64,000 nucleotides of DNA, taken from the UHGV virus genome UHGV-1519562; one strand, written 5' to 3'. The translations under genes and the position numbers were made by a program. Position 1 is the stretch's first letter, and each line of letters begins with the position of its first letter. Below the pieces are notes generated by a model. It had not been told where the DNA came from, ran no database searches, and saw only the letters and a program-made list of their open reading frames with translations. Shown piece by piece: positions 23,433 to 49,811 of the stretch. This DNA is from a virus.

Positions 23433-23445
23433 GGAGGAAGAGAAC

Positions 23446-23815: not shown

Positions 23816-23987
23816 GCTTTTGATTTGTACAATTTTACTTATTGACATTTTCCCAAAATTATGTTATTATATAATCACAAAAGGAAAGGAGATTTAAAAA
23901 TTTCAAAAAAAAAATAAAAAAAGGTCTTGACAAACCAGGGCAAAGATGCTATAATGAATACAGAAATTAAGGAAAGAGGTTGATAGT

Positions 23988-24263: not shown

Positions 24264-24296
24264 AAAGCCCTCTTCCATAGAGAAAGGAAGGTAGAA

Positions 24297-24772: not shown

Positions 24773-24963
24773 TGATGAAAATCAAAATTACTGAACTGTA
24801 CAAAGATGATGTGGCGGAATTTAAGTTTCCGCCAGAAGCATGGGCTTATTTTTGCTATCGGGAAAAGGAATCTAAAGGAAAATGATTCCCATTGATATTC
24901 ATCAATAGAAAGATGATATCACCTGAAACGTTGCATAAAATGTGTAGAAAGGTGGGTATTTAA

Positions 24964-25431: not shown

Positions 25432-25714
25432 GAATACTCAGAGTTCTTTTTTGTTTTTTCTAAAAAATTATGTTATAATATATATAGAAATTAAGGAAAG
25501 GAGCTTTTCTAATGACCTGTGAATTATTAAAGGCACTTGCGGTGATTATTGAATACTGTTTAAAGCAGGATAATTACAAAGTTTGTGTTATGCGTGATTT
25601 CTGTTCTAAGATGCCTTGTGAGTGGTAAATTACTTTAAAGATTTTAGAGATAGAAAGGCCCATTTTAGGGTCGAAATTTCGCACGTCTAGGTCATCAAAA
25701 AAAAATATCTGGAT

Positions 25715-25915
25715 ATGTTGAAAACTGAATTTGCCAGAAAGCTGGACTCGACTGGTCGATTAGTTATTCCTTCTAAGCTAAGAGATTATCTAGGAATGGA
25801 AACCGGCCAGTTGTTTACTTTTTATGTTCAAAAAGAAGAAAATGGAGATGTGTATTTGTGTGTGAAGTGTCCTAGTAATAAAATAAAATTTACTTTTGGT
25901 GAAAATGCCGATTGA
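25715..25915 (+). CDS. AbrB/MazE/SpoVT-family DNA-binding protein (putative regulator)
   Basis: RKLDSTGRLVIPSKLRDYLGMETGQ matches the swapped-hairpin AbrB-N signature. Confidence 0.6.
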   Translation: MLKTEFARKLDSTGRLVIPSKLRDYLGMETGQLFTFYVQKEENGDVYLCVKCPSNKIKFTFGENAD

Positions 25916-25960
25916 CATAAGGCTGGTTTTATGGTATACTATATATAAGGAGTGGCGGGC

Positions 25961-26090
25961 TGTGGACAGTGGTCACAGCCCGAAATCCCCTTTCCACTAG
26001 CATATGGCGATTTTTCTAGACTTCTAGCGACCCTTCATATGGCCGGGGTTTTTCCCGAAAGTGGCTCACCCGCTCGGAAAAAATTTTTTT
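25961..26090 (+). ncRNA. candidate small structured RNA (GC-rich element family, long copy)
   Basis: starts right after promoter TTGACA(25904)...TATACT; GGGCTGTGG...CACAGCCCGAAAT stem, CTTCTAGCGA motif shared with other copies, ends in an A/T run; no convincing ORF. Confidence 0.4.
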
Positions 26091-30893: not shown

Positions 30894-31034
30894 TTTATAA
30901 GACTTAATGAGAAATCATTAAGTCTTTTTTATACTCAAAACCGCAATGCTCCAAAATCTTTTAATCAAAATTGAAAAAATAAAAAAAATATATTATAATA
31001 TATATAGAAAATAAGAAAGGAAGTTGAATTTTAT

Positions 31035-31754
31035 ATGATTCCTGGTCTTTATGCAAACTATCAAAAACAATGGGGTCAAAACACCATTTGGATTATTTCT
31101 GACCTTCACTTTGGCGATAAAGAATTGCGGAAAGGTATTGCTAAACGTCCTTCTGACGAACAGCTTTTAAAGAATATTAATTCTTGCGTTGGCAAGAAAG
31201 ATACTCTTATTGTTCTAGGTGATGTAGGCGACTTATCTTACGTCCGCAAACTTAAAGGTTATAAAGTTCTTATTAAAGGAAATCATGATGTAGGTTCTTC
31301 CCTCTATCAAAGAGAAATTTTTTATAAGCGTTATCCGCAAGACTACATTTCTTATGAAGGTGTAAAAGCAGAAGTAAGAGAAAAATTCCCTGAATATTCT
31401 TTTTCTATTAATGAAGGTCTTGGTTTTTACAGTCCTTTTGAATGGTGGGAAGTAACTTTAGATAATAGACTTTTTGATGAAGTTTATGAAGGTGCATTAA
31501 TTATTGGCGAAAAGCTCATTCTTTCACATGAACCTATTGCTGATATTAATTGGGCGCTAAACCTGCATGGCCACAATCATTTTGGTATTCCGCATCCTGA
31601 TAAATATCATTATAACTTCAATGCAGATGTGATTAATTACAAACCCATTAATCTAAACAAATTTATGAAAGAAGGTTACTTATCCAAAATTCCTTCTATT
31701 CATAGACTTACTATTGATTCAGCTATTGAAAAAACAAAAAGAAAAAACAAATGA
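31035..31754 (+). CDS. calcineurin-like metallophosphoesterase
   Basis: motifs ISDLHFGD, GDVGD, GNHD, GHNH. Confidence 0.7.
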   Translation: MIPGLYANYQKQWGQNTIWIISDLHFGDKELRKGIAKRPSDEQLLKNINSCVGKKDTLIVLGDVGDLSYVRKLKGYKVLIKGNHDVGSSLYQREIFYKRYPQDYISYEGVKAEVREKFPEYSFSINEGLGFYSPFEWWEVTLDNRLFDEVYEGALIIGEKLILSHEPIADINWALNLHGHNHFGIPHPDKYHYNFNADVINYKPINLNKFMKEGYLSKIPSIHRLTIDSAIEKTKRKNK

Positions 31755-31840
31755 TTACAAGATTTTATAATCAAAATTGAAAATTTAATAAAAATATATT
31801 ATAATATATATAGAAAGTTAAGGGAGGAAGAAATATTACT

Positions 31841-32340: not shown

Positions 32341-32799
32341 ATGAGTGTTGCTAAATCTTATGAAAATTTTACTAAACTGTCTGAACCTTATGAAGAAAAT
32401 GGCAAGATGTATATTCAACTTCAGAATCCTAAAACTGGTACTATCCGCAAAGCAAGATGGTATGAAGAAACAAAAGTAAAGAAAACTAATAGCGGAAATC
32501 CCAATCTGAAAAGAGTGCGCGGTTTCAGCAAAGGTCCTATTCTTGTAGTTCGCAATATTAAAACTCATGCGGATGAACTTTGGTGTAAAGAATCCAATGC
32601 AAGATACGCGGTAGGTATTGGTTGGCATTTTGTTTCTGAAGAAGAACTTCCCACAGAAATGCCCAAAAACCTCAAATATGTACTTCTTACTTGGGATGAA
32701 TTTAAAGGCAAAGATGATTTTCATTCTAAAACCTCTAAACAGCTCGCCGCAATCATTACCCGCAAACTTGAAGCTAATAAAACTATTACTTTTTGTTAA
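32341..32799 (+). CDS. hypothetical protein
   Basis: 152-aa ORF, GGAGG RBS. Confidence 0.55.
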   Translation: MSVAKSYENFTKLSEPYEENGKMYIQLQNPKTGTIRKARWYEETKVKKTNSGNPNLKRVRGFSKGPILVVRNIKTHADELWCKESNARYAVGIGWHFVSEEELPTEMPKNLKYVLLTWDEFKGKDDFHSKTSKQLAAIITRKLEANKTITFC

Positions 32800-34861: not shown

Positions 34862-34956
34862 ATAAAACAAAGGTCAACAGATTTTGTAACACTGTTGACC
34901 TTTTAAAAATTTTATGATATAATATTTATAGAAAATAAAAAAGGAGTTTTAAAAGT

Positions 34957-36630
34957 ATGGAAGATTTTATGAACAAATTAAATCTTACTAAAGATGAAGA
35001 TTTGTTAAATTTTTATTTTCAAACTTACGGCGATGATGAAGCTATGCCCGCAAGAGACTATCTCAAATTTTGGCATGAAGCTAAAAGTGAATATCTACTT
35101 CCTATCTTTAAAAATCAACTTATCTACAAAAAAGAAATCAGTTTTGATGTAGATACTGAAATTCTTATTTCAAGAATTTACAGACTTTTTATTAAAGATA
35201 ATAAAAATTCTAATATCTATTACAAACTTAAAAATAGATTATTTGAAATTGTTGATAATTTATTTCCTAATGTAAGTAAAGATATTCGTATAAACAAAGA
35301 TGTTTCTTGTGATTCATACCTCTGGATAAGTTCTTGTTTAAATTTTCGCACTCTAGCTTTGAATAGAACTGCAACTACTTTTCAATATAATAATTTTAAA
35401 ATCCCGCAAGGTACAAAAGTTTTTAAAGCTCTTAAATCTTTTGTTAATTTTGCGTTAAAGAATAAACTTATTGAACAAATTGAATATGATGAAATAAATG
35501 ATCTTATTGAATATTTGCGGATTCAACATTCTCAAGTATTTAATCAAAAAAAGATTTCCGGCAATTTATGTATCTCAATTCATCCTATGGACTATATTAC
35601 CATGAGTGATAATAGTAATAACTGGGATTCTTGTATGCGCTGGGGCAATGACGGAGGGGATTATAAAGTAGGTACTTTGGAAATGCTTAATTCTCCTTCT
35701 GTTGTAGTTTGTTATCTTGAAAGCAAAAAACCTTGGAATATCAATGATGATTATTCCTGGAATAATAAAAAATGGCGGGAATTATTTATTGTTGATAAAG
35801 ATTTTATTTGTGGTGTCAAAGGCTATCCATATCCTAGTGTTTATCTGGAGACTATGTGTGCTAACTGGTTAGCAGATTTAGTTGAAGAATATTATCACAA
35901 TAAGTTTGATAGAACTAATTTCCGCTATGATAAAAAAATTACATTTGAAACTATTCTAATGTATAATGATATTAATGCAAATGGAGAATGTTTTTTATAT
36001 TATTCAGAGGATGCTATTGAAGCAGATGAAGAAATTGAATTTAATTATAGTGGATATGCAAGATGTTTAAGATGCGGTGAAATTATTTCTGAAGAATGGA
36101 CAGATTCAGATACTTTATTTAGTATGTTTCTTTGTCCTAGTTGCGCAGGTTTGATATTTTGTGCAGATTGTGGCGATTTAATTAATCCAGAAGATTATGG
36201 CGTTGAACACAATGGAAACTGGTATTGTGAAGAATGTATGTTAGATCATGGTTTCTTCTGCGGTGAGTGCGATGAATTTCATTGGAATGATGAAGATGAA
36301 AACACCGCGATTTATGTTGCGTACAAAGACAAAAATTCTGAACAAGTAGAATTAAGAATACTCAATTATTTGTGTCCTGATTGTATTAATGAAAATCTTG
36401 AATGTGGAAATATCGTTGAAGTAGAATATGAAAATCAAAAATATTATGTTGCTACTGTTGATTTTATTACTTCAGAATATGTTAGTCAAGTTTCTCGTTA
36501 TGGCGATAAAGATGGGCATAAAATGATTTCTACTTTTGCTTTTTACCATGATTTAACTTTTAATAAAACAATTTTGTATAATCCAGAATACTTTATTAAC
36601 AAGGAGTATTTAAATGAAGAAAATGACTAA
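34957..36630 (+). CDS. large hypothetical protein with C-terminal multi-CxxC zinc-ribbon region (paralog of 38736-40031)
   Basis: 557 aa; conserved block KISG.L..SI.P.....T.S.N..NW.SC...DG.Y..G shared with the 431-aa paralog; at least 6 CxxC pairs near the C-terminus. Confidence 0.65.
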   Translation: MEDFMNKLNLTKDEDLLNFYFQTYGDDEAMPARDYLKFWHEAKSEYLLPIFKNQLIYKKEISFDVDTEILISRIYRLFIKDNKNSNIYYKLKNRLFEIVDNLFPNVSKDIRINKDVSCDSYLWISSCLNFRTLALNRTATTFQYNNFKIPQGTKVFKALKSFVNFALKNKLIEQIEYDEINDLIEYLRIQHSQVFNQKKISGNLCISIHPMDYITMSDNSNNWDSCMRWGNDGGDYKVGTLEMLNSPSVVVCYLESKKPWNINDDYSWNNKKWRELFIVDKDFICGVKGYPYPSVYLETMCANWLADLVEEYYHNKFDRTNFRYDKKITFETILMYNDINANGECFLYYSEDAIEADEEIEFNYSGYARCLRCGEIISEEWTDSDTLFSMFLCPSCAGLIFCADCGDLINPEDYGVEHNGNWYCEECMLDHGFFCGECDEFHWNDEDENTAIYVAYKDKNSEQVELRILNYLCPDCINENLECGNIVEVEYENQKYYVATVDFITSEYVSQVSRYGDKDGHKMISTFAFYHDLTFNKTILYNPEYFINKEYLNEEND

Positions 36631-36991
36631 AAGAGATTATTATAAAAAAATTCTCCAACATTTTGGAGATAATTGCCCAGAGTCAGAAATGATTAGAAAT
36701 TTTCTTGAAAATGAAATTATGTTGCTTGATAGAAAAACAGAGTCTGCAAAGTTAAAAGCTATTGAAGCAAAAGAAAAAGGTGACGAACTGCGTGAACAGA
36801 TTTATGACATTTTACCTAGTTGCGAAGAAAATCCCATTCCTGTTTCTAAAATAAAAGAAATTTTAAATAATGATTTAATTACTTCTCAAAAAATTTCTGC
36901 GCGTTTGACTCAGTTGTTTAAATTAAACAAAATTGAGAAACAAGAAATTTCTTTTGAAGGTCAGAAAAAGACTGGATATAGAAAAATTTAA
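36614..36991 (+). CDS. small winged-helix-like protein (family with 18863, 22200, 59230 ORFs)
   Basis: 125 aa; C-terminal region resembles the putative wHTH of the paralog family. Confidence 0.5.
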   Translation: MKKMTKRDYYKKILQHFGDNCPESEMIRNFLENEIMLLDRKTESAKLKAIEAKEKGDELREQIYDILPSCEENPIPVSKIKEILNNDLITSQKISARLTQLFKLNKIEKQEISFEGQKKTGYRKI

Positions 36992-37158
36992 GAAGATAAA
37001 GAGGAGAATTTTTTCTCCTCTTTTTTATTACCATAATTATAATAACATATTTTTTGCTAAAAATAAAGTTTGAAACTTTTAGCTTAGCTTAGGCCGGGGC
37101 GGAGACGTGCGAATAAAAATGGCTTTAACAAATTTTTAAAAGATAAAGGAGAATAACA

Positions 37159-37935
37159 ATGTTATATAGTTTAAATACAAGATTAAAAAAACTAATGCCA
37201 GATGAAATCAAATGTCAAGTAAATAGATTGGGAGACATTTTTGATTTAATTAAAGAAAATCCAGATATTAGATGTAATATTCAATACACTAATATGGGCG
37301 AATTATCTGAAAAAAAATTAGATGAACAAATTGATTTTATTAAAGAAGTGGCAAAAGATTATACAATAGCTGTAATTAATTTCCAAGATTTGCGGAAATT
37401 AAAAGCAAAAGGCTATAATGTATATTTAGATTTGCCGGTTTCAGATTGGGAAACTTTTAATAATTTAAAAAATATTGGGGTTTCAGATATTTATATTGAC
37501 GGAGCTTTAGGATTCCAAATGGAAAAAATTGGAAAAGCAAAAGGAAAAATAAAGATTAGAGTTACTCCGCACATGTCGCCAAACGCGCAATGGTCATTTT
37601 CAGATAATGAAAATTCTTTTTATATTCGACCAGAAGATATAGATAATTATTCTAAATATGTAGATATTTTAGACTTTAGAGATAACAGTAAAGATGCAGA
37701 AGAAACTTTATTCAATATTTATAAAAGGAAGATTTTTCCTTTTGATTTAAATAATTTAATTAGACAATTGAATTTACCAACTAATAATATTTATATTGCA
37801 AATAGCTTTTGTTCAAACAGATTGAATTGCGGGCAAAGATGTCAAGAGCCAGATATTTCTTGCCATTTATGTAGAAACGCAATTTTAATTTCTAATAAAA
37901 TGAATGAATATATTAGTTTAACAGAAAAAAATTGA
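37159..37935 (+). CDS. hypothetical protein with C-terminal Cys cluster
   Basis: 258 aa; C-terminal CSNRLNCGQRCQEPDISCHLC. Confidence 0.55.
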   Translation: MLYSLNTRLKKLMPDEIKCQVNRLGDIFDLIKENPDIRCNIQYTNMGELSEKKLDEQIDFIKEVAKDYTIAVINFQDLRKLKAKGYNVYLDLPVSDWETFNNLKNIGVSDIYIDGALGFQMEKIGKAKGKIKIRVTPHMSPNAQWSFSDNENSFYIRPEDIDNYSKYVDILDFRDNSKDAEETLFNIYKRKIFPFDLNNLIRQLNLPTNNIYIANSFCSNRLNCGQRCQEPDISCHLCRNAILISNKMNEYISLTEKN

Positions 37936-38044
37936 TTTTTTTTAAAAAATATAATATAATATTTATATAATAAAAGAAATAATAAGTTTTATAAAACTCA
38001 CCTTTGGTGAGTTTTATAAAACAAATAAGAAAGATGGGGATGAT

Positions 38045-38770
38045 ATGAAACTAAATAATTATGATTATAGATTTTTAAAAAAGTTGTTACAGTCTACACA
38101 GCATGAACTATTAGAATTTTTGCCTAAAGCGCTTAATGCTATCTACCGCAAAGAAGATATTATTATTACCAACAATTATATTTGCGCTAAAGGTGATATC
38201 CCAGTAGCTTTAGTTGCTCATTTAGACACTGTATATCCAGAACCACCTAAACAGATTTTTCATGACCCAGAATATAATATTATTTGGGGAACAAGTGGTT
38301 TAGGTGCAGATGATAGAGCAGGCGTTTTTGCTATTTTAAATATTTTAGAATGTGGTTATAAACCTACTGTAATCTTTTGTTGTGATGAAGAAAATGGCGG
38401 TTTAGGTGCTTATCAACTGACTAAAGATTTTCCAAAACCTTTCACCAATTTTAAAATGCTTATTGAGCTAGACCGCCAAGGAACAAAAGATGCAGTATAT
38501 TATTCATTAAATAACACTGATTTTGAAAATTATATCAATAATTATGGATTTGAAACTGCGGTAGGTGTATTTACAGATATTTGTATTCTAGGTCCAATTT
38601 GGGATGTTCCCGCAGTTAATCTTTCTGTTGGTTATTTTAATGAACATAGTTATGCGGAAATGCTTTATTACCCGGCTTTATTTGATACTATTGATAAGGT
38701 TTGTTTAATTTTAGAAGAAAAGAGGACAAAAGACTTTGAATTTACAGAAATCACTGGAAGCAGCAATTAA
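38045..38770 (+). CDS. M20/M28/M42-type zinc metallopeptidase-like protein
   Basis: metal-ligand-like motifs VAHLDTV, GADDRAG, DEENGG. Confidence 0.6.
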   Translation: MKLNNYDYRFLKKLLQSTQHELLEFLPKALNAIYRKEDIIITNNYICAKGDIPVALVAHLDTVYPEPPKQIFHDPEYNIIWGTSGLGADDRAGVFAILNILECGYKPTVIFCCDEENGGLGAYQLTKDFPKPFTNFKMLIELDRQGTKDAVYYSLNNTDFENYINNYGFETAVGVFTDICILGPIWDVPAVNLSVGYFNEHSYAEMLYYPALFDTIDKVCLILEEKRTKDFEFTEITGSSN

Positions 38771-40031
38771 ATATTCTCAAAATTATTCTTTTCCTCTTGA
38801 TTGTAAAGAAATAATTACTTCTTGGGAAATTAATAAAGCTAAATTGAACAAAGAATATTTGAACGAAAAAATTACTTTACAATTAACTAATGAACCAGTA
38901 TCTATTACTCTTGATGAAACCTTTAGAAGAGATAGTTTTTTTGAATTTATTGATAAAGTTATGAATTTGTTGGAACCATCTGAAGATGCTCCAGATAGTG
39001 AAATAGAACTATATTACAATTTTTATGATTTTCTTAGTGATAATGTAAATAATTTTTATTCTAATATTGTTACTTCAGATTTTTTAAATATTGTAAAACG
39101 TGGAAGTAAAATTATTAAATCTTTTAAGTATTTTGTTAAAGATAAACAAAAGCTCAGAAAGATCCAGGATATGGCAAGTGAGTTAATTCAAACACAAAAA
39201 ATTTCTGGGTATTTATTTGCTTCTATTGATCCATTTGAATTTTTAACTTCTAGTGAGAATAATTGTAATTGGCGTTCTTGTCATTCATTGGATGGAGATT
39301 ATCGTGCAGGAAATATTAGTTATATGAATGATCCATCTACCATTATTGTATTTTTAGCAAATGAAGAAAAAATCAATGTAGAATGTTTACCAAAATCTAT
39401 CAAAGTCTATAATAAAAAATGGAGAATGTTAATTCATATAAATCAAAATGATAATATAATTTATTATGGAAGACAATACCCTTCTTATAATAAAAATTTA
39501 TTAGATTTAGTTTATAATAAATTGTTTTATGATAGAGGTTTTATGCCTCCTAAAGAAGTTACTTTTGACCAAATTAATTTAAATCAAGATAATTGTATTG
39601 ATTTAGACCATAATTATATGGCATTAAATAATAAAGTTTTTGATACTTTAGAATTAATTGATATTCCAGAAAATTCGTTGAATTATAATGATATTGTATA
39701 TTCTTCATTTCATCAAACACAGGTTAGTATTAACAAAAAATATAAATATTATTATAGCAAAGATAAACAAAAGACAATAGATTTATTTTTAACTAAAGTT
39801 GGTTATCCTGTTGCTTGCGCTTGTGGATGCGGCAGAAAAGTAAATAATTCGGCAAGCTTTATTTGTGATACTTGTGCAGAAAAATATAATGCTGAAGGAA
39901 ATTTATATCCAATTTGCTCTTGCTGTGGACAAAGAATAAATTTGAAAGATAAACAAAGTTATAAGCAAGAAGAAGAAGGTCTTTATTGTAATCTTTGTTG
40001 TGAGGAATTAAGTCATTTGAACGTCAATTGA
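38736..40031 (+). CDS. large hypothetical protein with C-terminal zinc ribbons (paralog of 34957-36630)
   Basis: 431 aa; shares core block with the 557-aa paralog; C-terminal CACGCG...CDTC...CSCCG...CNLCC. Confidence 0.65.
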   Translation: MNLQKSLEAAIKYSQNYSFPLDCKEIITSWEINKAKLNKEYLNEKITLQLTNEPVSITLDETFRRDSFFEFIDKVMNLLEPSEDAPDSEIELYYNFYDFLSDNVNNFYSNIVTSDFLNIVKRGSKIIKSFKYFVKDKQKLRKIQDMASELIQTQKISGYLFASIDPFEFLTSSENNCNWRSCHSLDGDYRAGNISYMNDPSTIIVFLANEEKINVECLPKSIKVYNKKWRMLIHINQNDNIIYYGRQYPSYNKNLLDLVYNKLFYDRGFMPPKEVTFDQINLNQDNCIDLDHNYMALNNKVFDTLELIDIPENSLNYNDIVYSSFHQTQVSINKKYKYYYSKDKQKTIDLFLTKVGYPVACACGCGRKVNNSASFICDTCAEKYNAEGNLYPICSCCGQRINLKDKQSYKQEEEGLYCNLCCEELSHLNVN

Positions 40032-40238
40032 ATTTTTAATAAAAATATATTATAATATATTTAGAAAATTAAGAAAGGAATAAAATATGACTGTAAAAGA
40101 GCATGAAGTAAAAGTTTTTAAATGGCATTATACTTTAGTTAAAAGTTCAGCCATTTTTATTTAAAAGATTTTATTAATCAAAATGTTTCAGATATTGATT
40201 ATTATATTGCTGATAATAATGAAAGTAATAAAATTATT

Positions 40239-40544
40239 TTGAATATTAATGGAGTAGAGTATCGTCTTTTGATTAATGATTATCTTCTTTATGATCCTTA
40301 TTATAATACTTTTGTCATATTAGAAAAATCTCCAGAATTTCTTTTTAAAGAATATGAAAAAGATTATGTTATTAAATTTTTAGATAATTATATTGGTAAA
40401 AATCTTCACGATATAACAACTATTTTTAGTTGTGCGAGACATTTTTCTTCTAAAGAAAAAGCTGAAAAGGTAGTAGATTTTTTGAGTAATAATTTTAACA
40501 CTGATAGAGCTTGTTTTAAAATTATTAACTTAAATGAGGAATAA
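40239..40544 (+). CDS. hypothetical protein (tandem paralog of 40547-40843)
   Basis: shared motif INGxEY.LL..DYL.YD.YY..F.I. Confidence 0.5.
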   Translation: MNINGVEYRLLINDYLLYDPYYNTFVILEKSPEFLFKEYEKDYVIKFLDNYIGKNLHDITTIFSCARHFSSKEKAEKVVDFLSNNFNTDRACFKIINLNEE

Positions 40545-40546
40545 TT

Positions 40547-40843
40547 ATGAGTAATACTATTGAACAAAAAGTTAAAATATTTTGTTGGAGTGTTCTTATT
40601 GACAAAAAATTATCTATTTTTTGTTTAGAAGATTTTTTGAATAATATTAACAATATTTCTTTTTATATTTTTATAAGCACTCATAATGATATTATTCATT
40701 TTAAAATTAATGAAAAAGAATATGTTCTCTTAATGGGAGATTATTTGGTTTATGATTCTTATTATGAGAATTTTGCTATATTTCATAAACTTCCAAAATA
40801 TATTCGTAAAATGCAACAAATTGAAAATTTAAAAAATAAATGA
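40547..40843 (+). CDS. hypothetical protein (tandem paralog of 40239-40544)
   Basis: same motif as previous gene. Confidence 0.5.
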   Translation: MSNTIEQKVKIFCWSVLIDKKLSIFCLEDFLNNINNISFYIFISTHNDIIHFKINEKEYVLLMGDYLVYDSYYENFAIFHKLPKYIRKMQQIENLKNK

Positions 40844-40884
40844 TATAATATATATACAAAGTTAAGAAAGGAATAAAAAAAATA

Positions 40885-41193
40885 ATGGCTAGACGCGGTG
40901 ACAAAGCAAGAGAACAGGTAATGCAGAAGATTGTTGATGTTTTTGGCGATGATTTCTGCTGTATTGATAATAAGAAGATTTATGTAAATGGTCACGAAGG
41001 TGGCGAAACTATTCAATTTGCTATTAGTTTGACAATGCCAAAGACACCTGTTACTGGTGGTTCTACTAATCGAAATATTACCACTGGTAATCCAAATGAT
41101 TGGACTGAGAAGGAAGTTAAGACTGCGGAAATTAGTGATGAAGACGCTGAGACAATCAAAAGATTAAAGGAAACTCTAGGTATTGTTGATTAA
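40885..41193 (+). CDS. hypothetical protein
   Basis: 102-aa ORF with conserved promoter and AAAGGA RBS. Confidence 0.55.
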   Translation: MARRGDKAREQVMQKIVDVFGDDFCCIDNKKIYVNGHEGGETIQFAISLTMPKTPVTGGSTNRNITTGNPNDWTEKEVKTAEISDEDAETIKRLKETLGIVD

Positions 41194-41441
41194 TTGATTT
41201 TATAAAAAAATTATGATATAATATTAATAGAAAATAAGAAATACAATATTTTCTATACTAACCAATCAAAATTACTTGAGAGATATTACTACCTAAACTT
41301 CACTCTTAAAAAGAAGGTTCACGGATGGGTCACAAGGCTACGGCTTAACCAAGAAGATAAAACGCCTTTCGCTGAAGAGCGAAACATAAATACTAAGGTT
41401 CAATGATTGGTGACTTCTAAAATCGAAAAAGAACCTTATAT

Positions 41442-42003
41442 AGTGTTGTAGCTCAGTAGGTTAGAGCCAGCGACTTATTTACGTTGATAATTAATATGAA
41501 AGAATTAACAGTTAAAAGAAAAGGTATTCTTACAGAAGAAAGATTAAAATTGTGGTTTTTGTTACAAGGATATTCTGTAAGTGTACCTATCGGAGATAAT
41601 GACAGGTATGATTTTATCGTAGATTTTGATGGTAAATTGATTAAAATGCAAAGTAAAACAAGTAATTTAACTAGAACAGTAGATTGCCTTAATTTTGCAT
41701 GTGCTTCAACTAAATATAATAGTACAGGTTCACATAGAACTAAATATACAAAAGATGATATTGATTATTTTTGTACTATTCATCCTGAAACAAATCAAGT
41801 TTATATTGTACCTGTTGATATTTGCGGAAATGAATGTAATTTAAGATTTGCCGCTCCAAAAAATAATAATTATAATGGAGTAAAAATGGCAAAAGATTAT
41901 GAAGGTGAAAAAATGATTGAAAGGATTTTAAATTCCTAATTAGTTAATTAGGAAAACGTAAATAAATCGCTAGACGTGGGTTCAAATCCCAACAGCACTA
42001 CCA
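41442..42003 (+). tRNA. tRNA gene interrupted in the anticodon loop by a 0.48-kb ORF-bearing insertion (anticodon ambiguous)
   Basis: 5' part 41442-41473: acceptor AGTGTTG, U8, D-arm GCTC/AGTAGGTTA/GAGC, anticodon stem AGCGA; 3' part 41967-42003: TCGCT, T-arm GTGGG/TTCAAAT/CCCAA, acceptor CAGCACT, A, CCA; flanking 9-nt inverted repeats extend the anticodon stem. Confidence 0.6.
41496..41939 (+). CDS. PD-(D/E)xK-like nuclease encoded inside the split tRNA
   Basis: motif RYDFIVDFDGKLIKMQSK similar to the small nuclease at 5034-5390 (RFDFAV...IEYQGKQH); ORF fills almost the entire insertion. Confidence 0.55.
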   Translation: MKELTVKRKGILTEERLKLWFLLQGYSVSVPIGDNDRYDFIVDFDGKLIKMQSKTSNLTRTVDCLNFACASTKYNSTGSHRTKYTKDDIDYFCTIHPETNQVYIVPVDICGNECNLRFAAPKNNNYNGVKMAKDYEGEKMIERILNS

Positions 42004-42233: not shown

Positions 42234-42311
42234 GGCACTGTAGCCCAATTGGAAGCAGGCAGTAGACTTAAAATCTATTCAGTGTGGGTTCGAGTCCCAT
42301 CAGTGCTACCA
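42234..42311 (+). tRNA. tRNA, anticodon UAA, class I (short variable loop) - atypical for Leu
   Basis: acceptor GGCACTG/CAGTGCT, anticodon stem GTAGA/TCTAT, loop CTTAAAA, T-arm GTGGG/TTCGAGT/CCCAT, CCA encoded; D-arm irregular. Confidence 0.55.
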
Positions 42312-42458
42312 TCACAGATTGTTGTGCGATTTAACTGTGTTAAATAAATTAAAATCGCGTTGCACAGTTCTTCCTTTAAGGAGTAGTTATGTTATATAAC
42401 GAATGAACTAAAAAATTAATATTATGTTAAAATTGTATTAATTATTAAAAATTTTTGG

Positions 42459-42487
42459 TTGACTTTAATTAATAAATATGTTATAAT
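42459..42487 (+). promoter_or_regulatory. promoter for tRNA-Leu(UAG) (TTGACT N17 TG-TATAAT)
   Basis: TTGACT 42459-42464, TG 42479-42480, TATAAT 42482-42487. Confidence 0.55.
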
Positions 42488-42523
42488 ATTTATATAAGAT
42501 TAACCAAAGAAATGTTGGATTGA

Positions 42524-42605
42524 TGGAATGGTAGACATAGTAGCCTTAGAAGCTACCGCGTAAGCGTAAGAGTTCAAGTCTCTTATCCAACACCATTAGA
42601 CAGAC
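42524..42605 (+). tRNA. tRNA-Leu (anticodon UAG), class II
   Basis: acceptor GTTGGAT/ATCCAAC, anticodon stem GTAGC/GCTAC, loop CTTAGAA, long variable arm, T-arm AAGAG/TTCAAGT/CTCTT, CCA. Confidence 0.75.
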
Positions 42606-42720
42606 ACAGCAATCTTTATACAAGTAACGACATGCGGGTTCGATTCCTGTCTTTACGCATCTGTAAAGTAGCCTATTGGTAAGGTATTTATTTTGTTTAA
42701 AGCTGTCTAGTAAATCTCAA
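42606..42720 (+). ncRNA. tRNA-like element with permuted (Y-RNA/YrlA-like) topology
   Basis: order: stem strand AGACAG (42609-42614), T-arm GCGGG/TTCGATT/CCTGT (42644-42660), acceptor 3' strand CTTTACG, 4-nt loop, acceptor 5' strand TGTAAAG, UA, D-arm GCCT/ATTGGTA/AGGT, closing strand CTGTCT (42713-42718). Confidence 0.4.
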
Positions 42721-42852
42721 TTTGAAAAATAAAAAAAATTATGATATAATATTTATAGAAAGTTGAGGTTGATTTAATGTTTTACTGGGATTCCTTTGAT
42801 TGTGAAATTCAGTCTGATGAAATTGGTAGTATTACTAATCAGGAGAATGAAT

Positions 42853-43014
42853 ATGAAGAAACAGAAGAACAAGAATTTATGGGCGAAAAAGAGTGGCGAT
42901 GAACTTCAAGAGTATTTACAATTTCGCCGCAGAGGTAGTAAAGTAAAACCTAAAAAGGGCAAAGGTTCCTTTAAAAGAAAAAAAGAAATTTGGATCCATA
43001 GCGTAATTGGTTAG
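42853..43014 (+). CDS. small very basic protein (hypothetical); 3' end overlaps tRNA-Asn
   Basis: ATG 42853 after AGGAG; K/R-rich 53-aa product; overlap with the tRNA makes coding status uncertain. Confidence 0.3.
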   Translation: MKKQKNKNLWAKKSGDELQEYLQFRRRGSKVKPKKGKGSFKRKKEIWIHSVIG

Positions 43015-43058
43015 CGCAACGGACTGTTAATCCGTGGGTTGTTCGTTCAAGTCGAACT
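42982..43058 (+). tRNA. tRNA-Asn (anticodon GUU)
   Basis: acceptor GGATCCA/TGGATCC, D-arm GCGT/AATTGGTTA/GCGC, anticodon stem ACGGA/TCCGT, loop CTGTTAA, T-arm GTTCG/TTCAAGT/CGAAC, G, CCA. Confidence 0.85.
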
Positions 43059-43081
43059 GGATCCGCCATATATTTTAATTA

Positions 43082-43157
43082 GCTCCTATCGACAAGTTGG
43101 TTAAGTCATTAGCCCTTCAAGCTAGAGTCGCGGGATCGTAGCCCGCTAGGAGTACCA
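43082..43157 (+). tRNA. tRNA-like, anticodon UUC (Glu) with atypical T-loop and C33
   Basis: acceptor GCTCCTA/TAGGAGT, anticodon stem TTAGC/GCTAG, loop CCTTCAA, T-arm GCGGG/ATCGTAG/CCCGC, A, CCA. Confidence 0.45.
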
Positions 43158-43243
43158 TAATGAAAGACACATACAGCAATTTATTTAACATTATGAAAAA
43201 ATGGCAGAAAATTTTTATATAGGTGTCTTGTTTATATATTGCA

Positions 43244-43294
43244 GGCAGGTTAAAGCCCTGTGCGTCGCTGGTTCAAATCCAGCCTGTGATACCA
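43244..43294 (+). pseudogene. 3' two-thirds of a tRNA (anticodon arm, T-arm, acceptor 3' strand, CCA) without a cognate 5' part
   Basis: anticodon stem GCAGG/CCTGT, T-arm GCTGG/TTCAAAT/CCAGC, CTGTGAT-A-CCA; no D-arm or complementary acceptor strand within 60 nt upstream. Confidence 0.4.
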
Positions 43295-43295
43295 T

Positions 43296-43368
43296 TGCGG
43301 AGTAGAGAAACGGTTATCTCGCAACCCTCATAAGGTTGAGAAAGGTGGTTCGACTCCACCCTCTCGCA
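43296..43368 (+). tRNA. tRNA-like, anticodon CAU (Met/Ile2-type), acceptor stem poorly paired
   Basis: D-arm GAGA/AACGGTTA/TCTC, anticodon stem CAACC/GGTTG, loop CTCATAA, T-arm GGTGG/TTCGACT/CCACC; acceptor strands mostly non-complementary. Confidence 0.4.
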
Positions 43369-43490
43369 GAGACATAATCAACCACCTCCACGCGGTATGT
43401 CTTGGGTAAAGCGAACGGTTGAATGATTTTGGGTACATTTGGATAATTTAGTAGCCAAAAAAACTCCATAATATAATGGAGGGATGTATA

Positions 43491-43952
43491 ATGAGTTATA
43501 TTTATAGAATTATTAATAATATAAACGATAAGGTTTATATTGGAAAAACTGCTTTTGATATTTCAAAACGATTCAAAGAGCATTGTAATGATGCTTTTAA
43601 GAAAACAGAAGAAAAAAGACCATTATATGCGACAATGCGTAAATATGGGATAGAGCATTTTACAATAGAACAAATTGAAGAGTGCTCTGACGCTGCGGCC
43701 GCAGACAGAGAAGCCTATTGGATTAGTATGTATTCTGCTTATGAAAAAGGATATAATGCGACTCTTGGTGGCGATGGTAAATTTTTATATGACCACAAAG
43801 CAATTGCTTTGCGACTTCAAGAACATCCATATTCTCAAGATGTAGCAAAGAAGTTTGGATGTTGTGTTGATACAGTAAGAAATATTGCTAATCAATATGG
43901 TATTTCATTATTAGTCAATAATGGCCATAAAAAAAACTATTTCTGCTTATAG
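43491..43952 (+). CDS. GIY-YIG homing endonuclease (catalytic domain plus first DNA-binding module)
   Basis: YIYRIINNINDKVYIGKT...RFKEH...YN.TLGG GIY-YIG signature; ATG 43491 after GGAGGG. Confidence 0.8.
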   Translation: MSYIYRIINNINDKVYIGKTAFDISKRFKEHCNDAFKKTEEKRPLYATMRKYGIEHFTIEQIEECSDAAAADREAYWISMYSAYEKGYNATLGGDGKFLYDHKAIALRLQEHPYSQDVAKKFGCCVDTVRNIANQYGISLLVNNGHKKNYFCL

Positions 43953-44124
43953 TAAAAGCGGTGTTTTAATAAAAACTTTTGAATCTACCTCAGAAGCAGC
44001 TCAGTGGTGTTATGATAATCAAAAATGTGCCACTTTGCACTCTGGTGTTAGAAGCCATATAGCACAATGTGCTAATGGGATTCGTAAATCTGCATATAGT
44101 TATATATGGAAATATGAAAATTAA
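43921..44124 (+). CDS. C-terminal DNA-binding module of the GIY-YIG endonuclease, in a different frame
   Basis: ...IAQCANGIRKSAYSYIWKYEN resembles the C-terminal module of Seg/I-TevI-like endonucleases; frame changes at an A8 run around 43926-43933. Confidence 0.55.
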   Translation: MAIKKTISAYSKSGVLIKTFESTSEAAQWCYDNQKCATLHSGVRSHIAQCANGIRKSAYSYIWKYEN

Positions 44125-44157
44125 AAATATAGACTCATACAGCAAAAATTCTTTAAT

Positions 44158-44230
44158 TCTAAAATAGTCAAAAGGTTAAGACATCACTCTTGAAAAAGTG
44201 AAAATATGGGTTCGATTCCCATTTCTAGGT
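44158..44230 (+). tRNA. tRNA-like with 8-nt anticodon loop CTTGAAAA
   Basis: acceptor TCTAAAA/TTCTAGG (one A-C mismatch), D-arm GTC/AAAAGGTTAA/GAC, anticodon stem TCACT/AGTGA, T-arm ATGGG/TTCGATT/CCCAT; flanked by TAGACTC (44121) / GAGTCTA (44237). Confidence 0.4.
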
Positions 44231-44446
44231 TTAAAAGAGTCTAGTTAAAAATTAAATATAGAAAGGAGAGTTGCTTTATGGATTTGGATGATATGATTTT
44301 TTCTGATGAAGTAATTATTATTAGTGATAGATAATTATTTCTAATTTATATGGAAATGTACTCAATGTTGGCAAAGAGGACGATTTGCTAAATCGTTAGG
44401 TCTATGAGAATAGGCGAGTGGGGTCGGCACCCACCGTTTCCGCCAA

Positions 44447-44517
44447 GAGAATGTGGTGTAATCTGGTAACACGCTAACTTTGGGAGCTAGAGTCGCAGTT
44501 CAAATCTGACATTTTCT
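44447..44517 (+). tRNA. degenerate tRNA-like (anticodon UGG-like), weak T-stem
   Basis: acceptor GAGAATG/CATTTTC, D-arm GTGT/AATCTGGTA/ACAC, loop TTTGGGA; T-stem only 3 bp. Confidence 0.3.
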
Positions 44518-44760
44518 ACCATTTAGACACATACAGCAATTTTATAATACTGATATTATAATTTGTGGCTCGCTGTGGCCCTATTAACAGCTCCATTTAA
44601 TGAAAAAGTATGTCAATGATTTATATTATCTTTTGCGAAAATTTCTTTAATATAATGAGACTTACAAGAAATTTTTTGTGTCTAGTTTTTCTTATTTTAT
44701 CCTTTCTTTCTTCTTTATAAGATGCTTTCAGCAATAATTATTACAAATATATTTTATTAG

Positions 44761-44856
44761 GTTTATTAAAATAGTATATATTATAGCAAATATATTTCTA
44801 TAAAGTTTATTAAAATACTATATAGTAAATATATTTCTATAAGGTTTATTAATAGC
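44761..44856. repeat. AT-rich tandem repeat (about 2.5 copies of an about 40-bp unit) upstream of tRNA-Gln
   Basis: GTTTATTAAAATA(G/C)TATATA..AG.AAATATATTTCTATAA repeated from 44761 and 44805, partial copy from 44844. Confidence 0.6.
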
Positions 44857-44866
44857 ATCTTGATAT

Positions 44867-44942
44867 AGCGGCATAGTCAAGTGGTTAAGACATACGGCTT
44901 TGACCCGTATATCCGTTGGTTCAAATCCAACTGCCGCTGCCA
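44867..44942 (+). tRNA. tRNA-Gln (anticodon UUG)
   Basis: acceptor AGCGGCA/TGCCGCT, anticodon stem TACGG/CCGTA, loop CTTTGAC, T-arm GTTGG/TTCAAAT/CCAAC, G, CCA. Confidence 0.8.
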
Positions 44943-45506: not shown

Positions 45507-46739
45507 ATGGCTGAAGTTATTTTAAATACTATTTTCCAAATTAGACGTGGTTCTAAAACTGCTTTATCTAATAAAAATTTATTATTAAGATATGGCGAAC
45601 CTTGTTATGAGTACCCTGAAAAAGCAGGAGAATCAGGAAAACTAAAAATTGGTGATGGTGTAACTCGTTATAATGATTTAAAATATATTACTGAGAATAT
45701 AGTTCTTCCAGAAGAAACGGCTAAATTTACTGGCGTACAAGAAACTTTACCAGATCCCGCAAGTGTAAAAGAAAATACTTTTTGTATTGTCAAAGGTGTT
45801 TTATATATACAAACAAAAGGCGACTGGGTTCCTGCAAGCGCGTCTCAAGAAGTTATAAAAGATTCTTCTGAAGAGCAAAGTTCTTGTACTATTGATGGTA
45901 AAAATTATGCAACAATAGAAGAAGCAATTGCGGCTGCCTCTCCTACTGATACTATTACTATTACAAAAAATTTATCTACTATTGAAATTAATAAACAAAT
46001 TTCTTTAGACTTAAATTCTGCTTATATTTTAAATAATGATAAAACACCAATAACAGTAGATAGCAATGGAATAGTAACTCTAAAAGGTGAAGGAACAGTA
46101 GAGTGCAATAAACATGCTACTCCTGTGTTATCTAATGATGGAACTACTATCATTGAGAATGGTTCTTATCTTAAATCTATTGATGAAAAAAACAATGGTT
46201 TTTATGTAGTAGTAAATCATGGTGATTTAAATATTAAAGGCGGCGTTTTTAGCTCTCCTGGCGATTTATCTAGCATGATAGAAAATGGCTATACTGATTA
46301 TAATGCCCAATATATAGAAGGAACTAATAAACAATATCCTTCTCTTACTATTGATGGTGGTACTTTTATTAGTAAATTTTATATTATCAAAAATGATGAT
46401 AATTCTAAAGCTATATTGAATAATGGTAACTTTTTTGGAACTATTTTACATAATGGTTTTGAATTAACCATTAATGATGGTGTTTTTTCTATTGATGATG
46501 GAAGTTATAATCTAAGAGTTAGAAAATTAAATGATAATATAAATAAAGCTACGACCTATATTAATGGCGGCACCTTTGATTCTAATGGAGAATCTAATTT
46601 TAAAATAGATGATGAAACCGCACAAATAATTATTAAAGGTGGTAAATTTAATCATCAAGTTCCTGAAAAATATTTGTTGGACGGATATGTTCAAAAATAT
46701 AAGGATGGATATTATATAATAAGTAAGGAAGGAGAATAA
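45507..46739 (+). CDS. putative tail fibre / receptor-binding protein
   Basis: 410 aa; N-terminal RRG...LL.YGEP.Y......KIGDGVT.YNDL.Y motif shared with the 47130 ORF; Gly/Asn/Thr-rich repetitive C-terminal part. Confidence 0.55.
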   Translation: MAEVILNTIFQIRRGSKTALSNKNLLLRYGEPCYEYPEKAGESGKLKIGDGVTRYNDLKYITENIVLPEETAKFTGVQETLPDPASVKENTFCIVKGVLYIQTKGDWVPASASQEVIKDSSEEQSSCTIDGKNYATIEEAIAAASPTDTITITKNLSTIEINKQISLDLNSAYILNNDKTPITVDSNGIVTLKGEGTVECNKHATPVLSNDGTTIIENGSYLKSIDEKNNGFYVVVNHGDLNIKGGVFSSPGDLSSMIENGYTDYNAQYIEGTNKQYPSLTIDGGTFISKFYIIKNDDNSKAILNNGNFFGTILHNGFELTINDGVFSIDDGSYNLRVRKLNDNINKATTYINGGTFDSNGESNFKIDDETAQIIIKGGKFNHQVPEKYLLDGYVQKYKDGYYIISKEGE

Positions 46740-49370: not shown

Positions 49371-49408
49371 ATGGGTAGAAGGTTAATCTTCTACCCATTT
49401 TTTTTATT
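49371..49408 (+). terminator. intrinsic terminator
   Basis: ATGGGTAGAAGG TTAA TCTTCTACCCAT hairpin plus T8 run. Confidence 0.7.
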
Positions 49409-49472
49409 ATTGGAATTTTTTAAAAATTTATATTATAATATATATAGAAAATTAAAAAAGGAGATAATAAAT

Positions 49473-49811
49473 ATGAAATATGGTCGGTATAAGATTTTTA
49501 GTAATTACACTGATATGGTGATTGCAGAATCCACTTTTGCTAAGCAGCCTGTTAGAGGTGTAGCACGATGTGATATTAAGAGTGGAGATGTTTTTGACTT
49601 GGAGAAGGGAATTGGCCTTGCTATTGCTCGATGTGATGCGAAGATCGCGGCTAAGAGACTTAAAACTGCAAAAGAGAAATTCGCAAATGCAAATTCTAAG
49701 GTTGAAGAAGCAGAAAAATTTATGAATAAAATGAAGGATTATTTCAATAAAAGCATGGGCGAATATGATGCTTGCATGGATATTCTTGCAGCGGTTGAAG
49801 ATAATATGTAA
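49473..49811 (+). CDS. hypothetical protein
   Basis: ATG 49473 after AAAAGGAG; conserved AT-rich promoter at 49415-49450. Confidence 0.55.
   Translation: MKYGRYKIFSNYTDMVIAESTFAKQPVRGVARCDIKSGDVFDLEKGIGLAIARCDAKIAAKRLKTAKEKFANANSKVEEAEKFMNKMKDYFNKSMGEYDACMDILAAVEDNM

Follow-up and report, generated by a model that had tools for sequence, protein, structure and literature searches.

The six genes A to F, found in the window (i.e. the whole 64,000-nucleotide stretch of virus genome UHGV-1519562 that was analysed), form a co-oriented cassette that is inherited as a unit within the phAss-1 / Enterococcus phage EF1 group, one clade of large gut-Bacillota siphophages. Its products include two enzyme-like paralogs (A and E) and a predicted di-zinc hydrolase (D), and LIM-like zinc fingers seem to recur in A, E and most D homologs. 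These fingers may dock the transferase-like A and E together with D on one common protein partner, a reading to which a probability of roughly one in three is assigned.

Table 1. Genes and other features of the cassette in the window
Feature	Position	Strand	Description
Promoter-like element before A	34877..34958	+	Member of repeat family D1
Gene A	34957..36630	+	ORF, 557 aa
Core domain of A	35542..36021	+	Signature LSIHPxDYxTMSDNxxxWxSCMSW..G.YRxGTxEMMNSP ... KKWRELF ... GYPY ... MYND
Zinc-finger region of A	36046..36384	+	C370/C373/C393/C396, C402/C405/C424/C427, plus a third set of CxxC pairs
Gene B	36614..36991	+	ORF, 125 aa; overlaps the end of A
Terminator-like hairpin after B	36998..37023	both	Palindromic, 11-bp stem, 4 GC pairs, T-rich tail
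Gene C	37159..37935	+	ORF, 258 aa
Promoter-like repeat copy before D	37929..37978	+	Repeat families D2, D4; TTGATT-17-TATAAT at 37932-37960
17-bp palindromic hairpin	37986-38022		Downstream of the repeat copy before D
Gene D	38045..38770	+	ORF, 241 aa
Gene E	38736..40031	+	ORF, 431 aa; TTG start; overlaps the end of D
Promoter-like repeat copy overlapping the end of E	40010-40091		Repeat families D1-D3
Promoter-like repeat copy before F	40818..40867	+	Repeat families D1-D3
Gene F	40885..41193	+	ORF, 102 aa; beyond the stretch originally described

Conservation of the cassette

The original prediction comprised four linked genes, A, C, D and E, all of which are present as ORFs where it placed them. 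The set is indeed linked, but it is larger, with six genes in place of four: B had been omitted from between A and C, and the unit runs past 40031 to F. The suggestion that the genes make up a functional module agrees with the gene order being kept in ~70 diverged phage contigs, where most genes on the flanks are not retained, and the opposite case, i.e. that linkage is absent elsewhere, clearly fails when checked.

Censuses by tblastn and HMM gave 79 loci in IMG/VR and 28 in GTDB, with 26-37% identity to A, and one close relative at 90%. Presence was counted in the 75 loci whose sequence continues for 7.5 kb or more beyond the last A copy, where C follows in 74/75, D and F in 73/75 each (F by HMM), B in 72/75 and E in 64/75. 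The cassette genes lie on the same strand in all 75 loci, the exact order A-B-C-D-E-F is found in 52, and A may stand in tandem, with up to three copies (locus L006). As a control, 18 flanking ORFs of the window were tested, 16 of which turned up in no more than 7 of 45 distant loci, against 45/45 for A, C and D. Since the loci all come from one broad phage clade, the linkage partly reflects shared descent.

Relatives also exist in the cultured Enterococcus phages EF1, EF5, H1 and VRE9 (VRE9_1-4), where three A/E paralogs are kept around a D homolog: phrog_29713 (H1_1, 623 aa), phrog_18912 (H1_5 and H1_7) and phrog_34186 (H1_6, 'putative peptidase'). The A profile aligns with H1_1 at 98.7% and with H1_7 at 97.6% (hhalign), H1_5 scores 5e-18 against the A HMM and 4e-13 in a tblastn search with E, and the D homolog is 44% identical, with A-family paralogs on both sides. 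CxxC fingers are present in H1_1 and H1_7, reduced in H1_6 and absent in H1_5. The portal of these phages is related as well (30.7%), and their locus carries an inserted collagen-like gene. Homologs of B, C and F were not detected in the 12 kb examined; either the pathway can do without them or the cassette is composite. All A, E and D relatives in these phages are annotated as hypothetical, and they do not increase functional knowledge.

The paralogs A and E

A and E are true paralogs (BLASTP E 4e-15 over ~330 residues), and the common core that had been predicted for them is present in the sequence, reading KISGNLCISIHPMDYITMSDNSNNWDSCMRW..GDYKVG in A and KISGYLFASIDPFEFLTSSENNCNWRSCHSLDGDYRAG in E. 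The resemblance far exceeds what chance would give, and an HMM made from E-type and Enterococcus-phage sequences alone scores A at 5e-40. In A, residues 1-195 form a helical N-terminal domain and residues 196-355 an alpha/beta core, after which come three CxxC...CxxC zinc sites (aa 364-476), a small domain of beta structure and finally a tail that is disordered (AlphaFold2 model, pLDDT 86.5); in E the core lies at ~aa 150-300 (nt 39183-39635) and the LIM-like finger at aa 356-425 (nt 39801-40010). Across 79 sequences, S207, P210, W223, C226, G239, K271, W273, R274, Y290, P291 and D338 of the A core are invariant, and the matching S, P, W, C, G, K, R, Y-P and D are invariant in the E subfamily (alignment A3). 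With the helical N-terminal domain, the alpha/beta core bearing invariant polar residues and the acidic finger, the architecture is enzyme-like.

Judged by sequence profiles, the core defines a very large phage-only family, a core-only profile finding at least 4,222 cluster representatives (50% identity) at E<=1e-3. That it could not be placed in a known family still holds, with no match in Pfam, NCBIfam or PADLOC and no informative one in PHROG; none of the 156 homologs of gene A is named. The core can be compared to acyl/aminoacyl transferases of the GNAT fold (b1-a1-a2-b2-b3-b4-a3-b5-a4-b6), but their acetyl-CoA-binding motif and any sequence or profile similarity to them are missing: the acyl-CoA pyrophosphate-binding motif Q/R-x-x-G-x-G/A is absent (where b4 meets a3 the sequence is KGYPYxNxxLE), an hhalign comparison with E. 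coli YhbS yields E 0.6, and the Pfam families matched by the 79 A-family members include no acetyltransferase (GNAT). Unlike these transferases, moreover, A and E have an invariant Cys in a long loop between the first strand and the second helix, and add a helical domain at the N-terminus and a zinc-finger domain at the C-terminus. The N-terminal domain of A does not qualify as the DGR accessory protein Avd either, i.e. as a four-helix bundle beside a reverse transcriptase and a template/variable repeat pair.

Acidic LIM-like fingers

CxxC pairs close both A and E as predicted (six pairs in A, two zinc sites' worth in E), but these ends, described as zinc-ribbon-like, are better called LIM-like double zinc fingers. 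The spacing in A is C370-x2-C373-x19-C393-x2-C396-x5-C402-x2-C405-x18-C424-x2-C427, which resembles eukaryotic LIM domains (CRP1/CRP2, PDB 1b8t, 1cxx) in having two consecutive four-ligand CxxC-pair zinc sites with loops of 16-20 residues. The LIM pattern compared (C-x2-C-x16-23-[HC]-x2-C-x2-C-x2-C-x16-21-C-x2-[CHD]), however, has a linker of 2 residues between the sites, whereas A has 5, and the A fingers further differ by their all-Cys ligands, their strong acidity and a third CxxC...CxxC site after the two. The finger profile of A matches the CRP1/CRP2 LIM domains in the PDB at E 1e-7, although profiles rich in Cys are easily biased, and only 3 of 79 A-family members are hit by Pfam LIM, weakly (E>=0.005). 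By hhalign, the fingers of A and E match each other at 99.2%, and the tail of D homologs matches both at 94-96%. It seems that A, E and most D homologs carry LIM-like fingers, a likeness that could be due to homology or to convergence.

The mean net charge of the finger is -13.6 in A (~84 residues, 77 homologs) and -10.1 in E, that of the whole proteins -31 (A homologs) and -21 (E). The acidity of the fingers speaks against direct nucleic-acid binding.

The predicted hydrolase D

As far as its sequence tells, D is a single-domain, lid-less di-zinc hydrolase of the M20/M28 type (clan MH) with its catalytic residues intact, in line with the M20/M28-like peptidase originally proposed. Pfam PF04389 (Peptidase_M28) matches it at 24.8 bits (cut-off 21.3 bits) and phrog_34186 at 3.6e-54, and the family profile matches the PepT-like tripeptidase 3rza (7e-12), 3gb0 (1e-11) and CPG2 in the PDB. 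The motifs HLDTV, GADDRAG and DEENGG are all found in D, and H59, D61, D89, D90, E115, E116, D143 and H201 are invariant among 43 homologs. D has the same H-x-D, GADD, EE and EH, all invariant, as the clan MH hydrolases (3rza, 3gb0, carboxypeptidase G2 1cg2, ArgE/DapE/LysK), but the lid/dimerisation insert of M20 proper is absent: against 3rza, only chain residues 76-179 and 347-390 align, and ~180-346 are skipped. NCBIfam equivalogs give only 12-29 bits, far under their cut-offs of 163-363 bits, and these weak matches belong to the ArgE / LysK ([LysW]-lysine hydrolase) group. Most D homologs have ~330 aa and a C-terminal 8-Cys zinc-finger tail (we know of no such finger in the M20/M28 clan), while D of this phage lineage is without the tail.

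Proteins C, B and F

C is a small TIM barrel, i.e. an eight-stranded (beta/alpha) barrel, followed by helices that bear a putative Cys4 metal site (aa 224-238, nt 37828-37872). The predicted Cys-rich tail exists, but its true pattern is C-x5-C-x3-C-x6-C-x2-C, of which only the last four Cys (C224, C228, C235 and C238) are invariant. The nearest systems are small TIM-barrel enzymes (GDPD, the C-terminal domain of phage K gp155, and the U32 'peptidase' Mk0906, PDB 5d88); a Pfam search with C found nothing. The U32 / prephenate-dependent hydroxylase family (UbiU, UbiV, TrhP, RlhA) was rejected on similarity (hhalign E 0.05-0.17) and Cys pattern, and GDPD on the catalytic His pair and the metal-binding Glu/Asp/Glu.

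B combines a coiled-coil N-terminal half with a putative winged-helix C-terminal half, its profile weakly matching Lrp/AsnC-type HTH (E 0.0035) and Z-alpha (0.05) in the PDB, and belongs to a multi-copy family with paralogs at 22194-22613, 18833-19216 and 59203-59496 of this phage. F starts with MA[RK]G, followed by a conserved K-x-Y...GE..Q.AISLTCPK hairpin, a variable acidic linker and a C-terminal helix, which in nearly all homologs closes with ...LM.RLGL right before the stop, some genomes adding 0-2 residues (alignment A9); F of the window ends LGIVD. In distant loci F comes directly behind E, at a median distance of 187 nt, and in those without E it directly follows D, while in the window two small ORFs (40239-40544 and 40547-40843) separate it from E. 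F does not qualify as a ubiquitin-like or SAMP protein, its C-terminus (...RLGL) having no Gly-Gly; SUMO-2 in the PDB (E 0.13) and SAMP2 in Pfam (E 0.081, in 1 of 23 members) are sub-threshold hints.

Promoter-like repeats

The cassette genes are predicted to sit behind copies of a sigma-70-like promoter element of the phage's own, which precedes many genes of the region. The repeat is made up of a TTGAAA-type -35, a 17-nt spacer, an extended TATAAT and then the leader/RBS AGAAAGTTAAGAAAGGA, and the best match in the region (34895-34923, TTGACC-17-TATAAT) agrees in 11/12 positions and has the TG. A riboswitch or known RNA motif is not found in the cassette.

Possible function of the cassette

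In the docking model, the acidic fingers of LIM type (a protein-interaction type) would bring A, E and D to a common partner, for which F, or a basic host or phage protein, is a candidate. A and E, with a core of putatively GNAT-like topology, would add a group to this partner, D would trim or remove the group, and C might provide a metal-dependent step. In favour of it are the conserved linkage, the alignable and acidic fingers, and the promoter-like repeats before A, D and F; A and E, moreover, have the same invariant polar residues, and in D the H-x-D, bridging D, EE, D and H are all retained. Against it, D of the window itself has lost the zinc finger, the LIM assignment comes from a bias-prone Cys-rich profile and has the 5-residue instead of the 2-residue spacing, and the role of C is left unexplained.

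It could also be that the cassette acts on nucleic acids, modifying phage DNA after replication or modifying or repairing tRNA/RNA, with A/E adding a group to a base, D deacylating or trimming the adduct, C as a metal-dependent base- or sugar-modifying barrel and B as a DNA-binding helper. This is unlikely, as the A/E fingers and whole proteins are far more acidic than is typical of nucleic-acid binders, C has neither a U32 sequence match nor a Pfam match, the cassette has no RNA motif of the kinds searched for, and nucleotide-metabolism genes are absent from the 15 larger ORFs nearby that were scanned against PHROGs or Pfam (45.5-60.8 kb plus 31035-31754). Quite unlikely is a tag or carrier pathway centred on F, analogous to ubiquitin-like tagging, LysW-type carrier chemistry or N-degron aminoacyl transfer, in which D as an exopeptidase would process the N-terminus (MA[RK]G) or C-terminus (...RLGL) of F and A/E would load or conjugate it. 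F is linked as tightly as C and D, stands directly after D where E is absent and has a nearly invariant extreme C-terminus (with the 0-2 extra residues in some genomes), which together with the weak ArgE / LysK matches of D and the faint SUMO-2 and SAMP2 hints would fit such a pathway; these hints are not significant, however, a terminal Gly-Gly is lacking, E1-, E2-, ATP-grasp- or PafA-type ligases are absent, and F is undetected beside the A/E and D genes of the Enterococcus phages.

A and E might, alternatively, not be enzymes but acidic decoys or inhibitors (DNA-mimic-like, in host takeover or anti-defence) that adjoin metabolic genes by chance, and their very negative charge (mean -31 for A homologs), multiple gene copies (up to three A in tandem), sigma-70-type promoter elements (as for many neighbours) and restriction to phages would suit that role. 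This is nevertheless very unlikely, given that some ten polar positions (S, C, K, R, Y, D) do not vary between subfamilies sharing only ~23% identity, which is typical of an active site, that both are large multidomain proteins with an alpha/beta core that is modelled confidently, that the linkage to two clear enzymes is strict, and that PADLOC has no matches. Similarly poor odds are given to a small molecule or peptide (metabolite, cofactor, RiPP-like product) rather than a macromolecule as the substrate or product. An acyltransferase-like enzyme, an M20 deacylase and a TIM barrel do recall the protect-modify-deprotect logic that occurs in amino-acid pathways such as ArgE and DapE, the weak NCBIfam matches of D point the same way and F is laid out as conserved-variable-conserved, but one protein-interaction-type finger on three enzymes is unusual for soluble small-molecule enzymes, and linked transporter, ligase or cofactor-biosynthesis genes are absent. 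Finally, the order could simply be kept by common ancestry of the carriers, every locus belonging to one broad clade of large gut phages, with no functional coupling at all. This is extremely improbable and already disfavoured: at 26-37% identity the neighbours are almost fully turned over while A, C and D persist in 45/45 loci, the association of A/E with D persists in Enterococcus phages among neighbours that otherwise differ, and A, D and E have a homologous finger in common.

The cassette is mostly built of protein families without a database name. Under the docking model, these would make up a protein-directed modification and processing pathway, run from sigma-70-type promoter elements like those before many of the neighbouring genes.

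Conservation and extent of the cassette

The four reading frames named in the original prediction, i.e. the paralogs A and E, the Cys-cluster protein C and the peptidase-like D, lie at the coordinates it assigned to them, and the co-located set that they were proposed to form is a conserved unit. It had nevertheless been drawn too small, as gene B, between A and C, was left out and the conserved unit continues past position 40031, where the set had been thought to end.

A scan of IMG/VR with an alignment of A yielded 79 loci on phage contigs of 13-402 kb, with 28-36% identity to A except in one close relative (L007, 90%). Linkage was counted by tblastn followed by an HMM per family, in the 75 loci (IMG/VR + GTDB) with at least 7.5 kb beyond the last A copy. 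Gene order and strand were nearly constant: C was present in 74 of these loci, D and F in 73 each, B in 72 and E in 64, on one strand throughout, with exactly A-B-C-D-E-F in 52 and A-B-C-D-F in 8, while some loci carried tandem extra copies of A (e.g. three in locus L006). Eighteen flanking ORFs of the window served as the control: of these, 16 were present in no more than 7 of 45 distant loci with complete flanks. One exception is a 152-aa ORF, without a family match, which is kept in 36/45 loci upstream of the cassette at variable distance (median 2.6 kb); its homologs elsewhere measure ~240 aa, which suggests that the copy in the window has been shortened. The other exception is F, located a median of 187 nt past E, or directly past D where E is absent (in the window, two small ORFs are inserted between E and F). 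From this control and the position of F it follows that the linkage is not general synteny and that the cassette has six genes.

Features of the window
Feature	Position	Strand	Remarks
Portal gene	3387-5015	minus	
B paralog	18833-19216	+	HMM E 5.5e-9
B paralog	22194-22613	+	HMM E 1.6e-16
Promoter-like repeat copies	30953-31034, 31759-31840, 34877-34958, 37929-37978, 40010-40091, 40818-40867, 41191-41240, 42719-42768, 49393-49474, 51697-51778, 51782-51863, 56184-56265, 59126-59209, 61656-61737		
Flanking ORF	32341-32799		152 aa
A	34957-36630		557 aa
B	36614-36991		125 aa
C	37159-37935		258 aa
D	38045-38770		241 aa, M20/M28-type
E	38736-40031		431 aa
F	40885-41193		102 aa
PDDEXK_5-family nuclease-like gene	41484-41939		before first tRNA array; in 3/45 related loci
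tRNA arrays (two, 16 genes in all)	42234-44942 and 52167-53479		
GIY-YIG gene	43476-43952		inside first tRNA array; in 7/45 related loci
Mtd_N-like protein (weak match)	45507-46739		410 aa
Radical-SAM protein	49836-51080		phrog_1802
CxxC-rich ORF	51058-51714		218 aa
Ro60-like RNA-binding protein	53535-55058		
Subtilase (S8) domain + C-terminal S-layer-homology domain	55113-56174		353 aa
Calcineurin-like phosphoesterase	57508-58254		
B paralog	59203-59496	+	HMM E 3e-4
RNA ligase	59510-60787		

In-frame TAG codons occur in C and F homologs of related contigs (L006:16241-17023; L044:15628-15936), one of those in L044 aligning with a Gln of other genomes. For the large Bacillota siphophages of this group a new family has been proposed, in which some members recode TAG (PMC10607447), and the in-frame TAGs fit such recoding in the phAss-1 group. 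The same cause may apply to census ORFs that were split as 'CC', 'DD' or 'EE'. No recoding is evident in the cassette of the window.

The A/E family

The paralogy of A and E holds (BLASTP E 4e-15, 23% identity over ~330 residues), and A is matched at 5e-40 by an HMM built without A-type sequences. A, E and 79 aligned homologs gave no match to Pfam, NCBIfam, PADLOC or any named PHROG family, and unnamed metagenomic proteins without a Pfam domain were all that word-indexed searches yielded. A HMMER search of 1.84 billion cluster representatives with a core-only profile gave 4,222 matches at E<=1e-3 (2,264 at E<=1e-30); counted in clusters at 50% identity, the family has 4,222 members or more, every one from a phage-like contig. 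In GTDB genomes, which were scanned with an alignment of the A family (A1) because the core-only alignment (A7) was too divergent, it occurs on contigs of gut metagenome-assembled genomes only, mostly Bacillota; many of these are 150-176 kb and are therefore probably mis-binned phages. Among 50,697 GenBank phage records, E detected seven Enterococcus phages only, and tblastn of A or of C against GenBank phages gave no match.

Both subfamilies share an invariant Ser and Pro (S-[IV]-x-P), Trp and Cys (W-x-[ST]-C), a Gly, the Lys-x-x-Arg of KKWR, a Tyr-Pro and the Asp of (M)YND, as active sites typically do. The confident AlphaFold2 prediction for A (pLDDT 86.5, pTM 0.79) begins with a helical domain, which leads into an alpha/beta core (aa 196-355); segments rich in zinc knuckles, a small beta domain and a disordered tail complete the chain. 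Foldseek against BFVD matched it to uncharacterised phage proteins only, the two best of which (623 and 335 aa) appear, judged by their length, to be the paralogs H1_1 and H1_7 of Enterococcus phage H1.

Several assignments were rejected. For the A/E motif, the PcfJ-like family (Pfam PF14284) was considered, but no Pfam match was found in any of 79 members; in the literature, the name 'PcfJ' led to C. elegans plasmid names only. A GNAT assignment of the core by sequence (hhalign E 0.6) remains a weak fold-level lead. For the N-terminal domain of A, a DGR/Avd relationship was considered: a 410-aa protein of the window has a weak, sub-threshold match (E 3e-4) to Mtd_N, the N-terminal part of the major tropism determinant of DGRs, yet no template/variable repeat pair is present in 30-64 kb.

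An acidic finger common to three proteins

The C-terminal finger of A reads C-x2-C-x19-C-x2-C-x5-C-x2-C-x18-C-x2-C, after which comes one more pair of CxxC, the third, and the A/E family profile matches the LIM domains of CRP1 and CRP2 (E 1e-7). Between the A and E finger regions hhalign gives a probability of 99%, and a C-terminal 8-Cys tail in D homologs of ~330 aa matches both at 94-96%; in the D of the window and its close relatives this tail has been lost. The fingers (~84 residues) are strongly acidic, their mean net charge being -13.6 over 77 homologs of A and -10.1 over 32 homologs of E. This acidity and the likeness to LIM domains make docking to proteins a more probable role than binding of nucleic acids.

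The remaining cassette genes

The motifs by which D had been called metallopeptidase-like (HLDTV, GADDRAG, DEENGG) are present. D belongs to the M20/M28 di-zinc hydrolases and has a single domain; it scores over the Pfam M28 threshold and aligns with the PepT-like PDB entry 3rza at 7e-12, the lid domain being skipped, and all of its ligand and catalytic residues are invariant. Of the Cys cluster described for C, the last four Cys are conserved and the others are not; C is a Cys4 TIM barrel, and assignment to GDPD was rejected as there is no His that is invariant. B, which overlaps the 3' end of A, weakly matches a winged helix (E 0.0035), and judging by its three further copies in the window its family is a multi-copy one, scattered over the phage genome. 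In F, a conserved N-terminus (MA[RK]G) and a K-x-Y...GE..Q.AISLTCPK hairpin precede a variable acidic linker, after which a C-terminal helix runs up to the stop codon, with ...LM.RLGL as its last residues in almost every homolog; against PDB and Pfam it has no significant match, with sub-threshold ubiquitin-like hints only (SUMO-2, SAMP2).

Expression signals and genomic setting

A repeat family, TTGAAA-17-TATTATAAT...AGAAAGTTAAGAAAGGA, is present in at least 14 copies in 30-64 kb of the window. Each copy (50-84 nt) comprises TTGAAA, a 17-nt spacer, TATTATAAT and then ATATATAGAAAGTTAAGAAAGGA, ahead of many plus-strand genes, and appears to be the phage's own conserved sigma-70-type promoter with leader/RBS. 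Copies stand directly upstream of A (the strongest promoter match of the region), D and F, with another at the end of E; a terminator-like hairpin lies 3' of B, and the intergenic gaps of the cassette contain no riboswitch or known RNA.

The window lies in a ~130-kb metagenomic phage contig (JGI 3300045988), whose portal has its closest match in gut phage phAss-1 (39.6% identity), with 30.7% identity to Enterococcus phages EF1, EF5, H1 and VRE9. The Ro60-like protein, phosphoesterase and RNA ligase near the second tRNA array look like an RNA-repair gene set, the PDDEXK_5 and GIY-YIG genes probably encode mobile or homing endonucleases, and the combination of subtilase and S-layer-homology domains suggests a Gram-positive (Bacillota) host envelope as target. 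One tRNA (44158-44230) has a four-base anticodon (tgaa) according to ARAGORN, yet a normal tRNA score in Rfam. The 218-aa ORF overlapping the radical-SAM gene has nine CxxC motifs and no Pfam match. G+C is 36-40% in 14001-26000 and 48-54 kb versus 26-31% in most of the window (cassette ~27%).

In Enterococcus phage H1, a D homolog (H1_6, 44% identity) lies between H1_5 and H1_7, with H1_1 upstream, the latter three being A/E-family members; homologs of C, B and F were not detected at this locus, and the evolutionary core is thus the A/E paralogs plus the peptidase. Lactococcus phage P087 has a D-like peptidase lacking the finger tail, with no A/E relative within 5 kb, so the peptidase family is wider than the cassette.

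Possible function

The cassette is a real, strictly conserved and co-oriented enzyme set, in which the metallohydrolase (D) is intact, C is a TIM barrel with a Cys4 site, and A, E and most D homologs have an acidic finger in common. Tentatively (at a probability of about 0.35), the finger serves to bring the transferase-like A/E together with the hydrolase D on a common protein partner, on which they would add and trim a group; the partner could be F, or else a basic protein of the host or the phage. That the genes instead form a DNA or RNA modification pathway is unlikely, and is weakened by the acidity of the fingers and by a failed U32 test. A pathway centred on F as a tag or carrier is quite improbable, and there is only a slim chance that A/E are non-enzymatic acidic decoys, the search of the defence/anti-defence catalogue PADLOC having found nothing, or, to the same degree, that the cassette performs small-molecule chemistry. 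Mere shared descent is barely credible.

Beyond docking on a common partner, it is conceivable, though distinctly unlikely, that A/E represent a new enzyme superfamily and form, with D, C and F, a previously unknown phage system for protein-terminus remodelling or tagging. The acidic LIM-like zinc finger would then deliver a GNAT-like core that uses the invariant Cys, in partnership with a finger-tagged M20/M28 exopeptidase, the TIM barrel with its Cys4 site and the small F. For instance, a terminus would first be trimmed by D, and A/E would then attach a residue or group, with F or a host protein as the acceptor; the phage would thereby re-programme the host cell.

In the databases searched, D alone fits a known family, and no known system seems to join these parts. 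Conserved unknown cassettes in phage 'dark matter' are not rare as such; this one is set apart by the size of its unnamed family, by the LIM-like finger on three enzymes and by the cultured Enterococcus phages available for tests. EF1, H1 and VRE9 carry the A/E and peptidase core, which makes the cassette directly testable. The A/E core is among the larger protein families still absent from Pfam and NCBIfam, and within the six-gene cassette it is firmly tied to two recognisable metalloenzymes. Present in abundant gut phages of Bacillota, behind sigma-70-type elements, the cassette is probably central to infection. If it modifies DNA or RNA, it would represent new chemistry in phage counter-defence; if the shared finger does target three enzymes to one partner, it would be a new phage way of organising a modification pathway.
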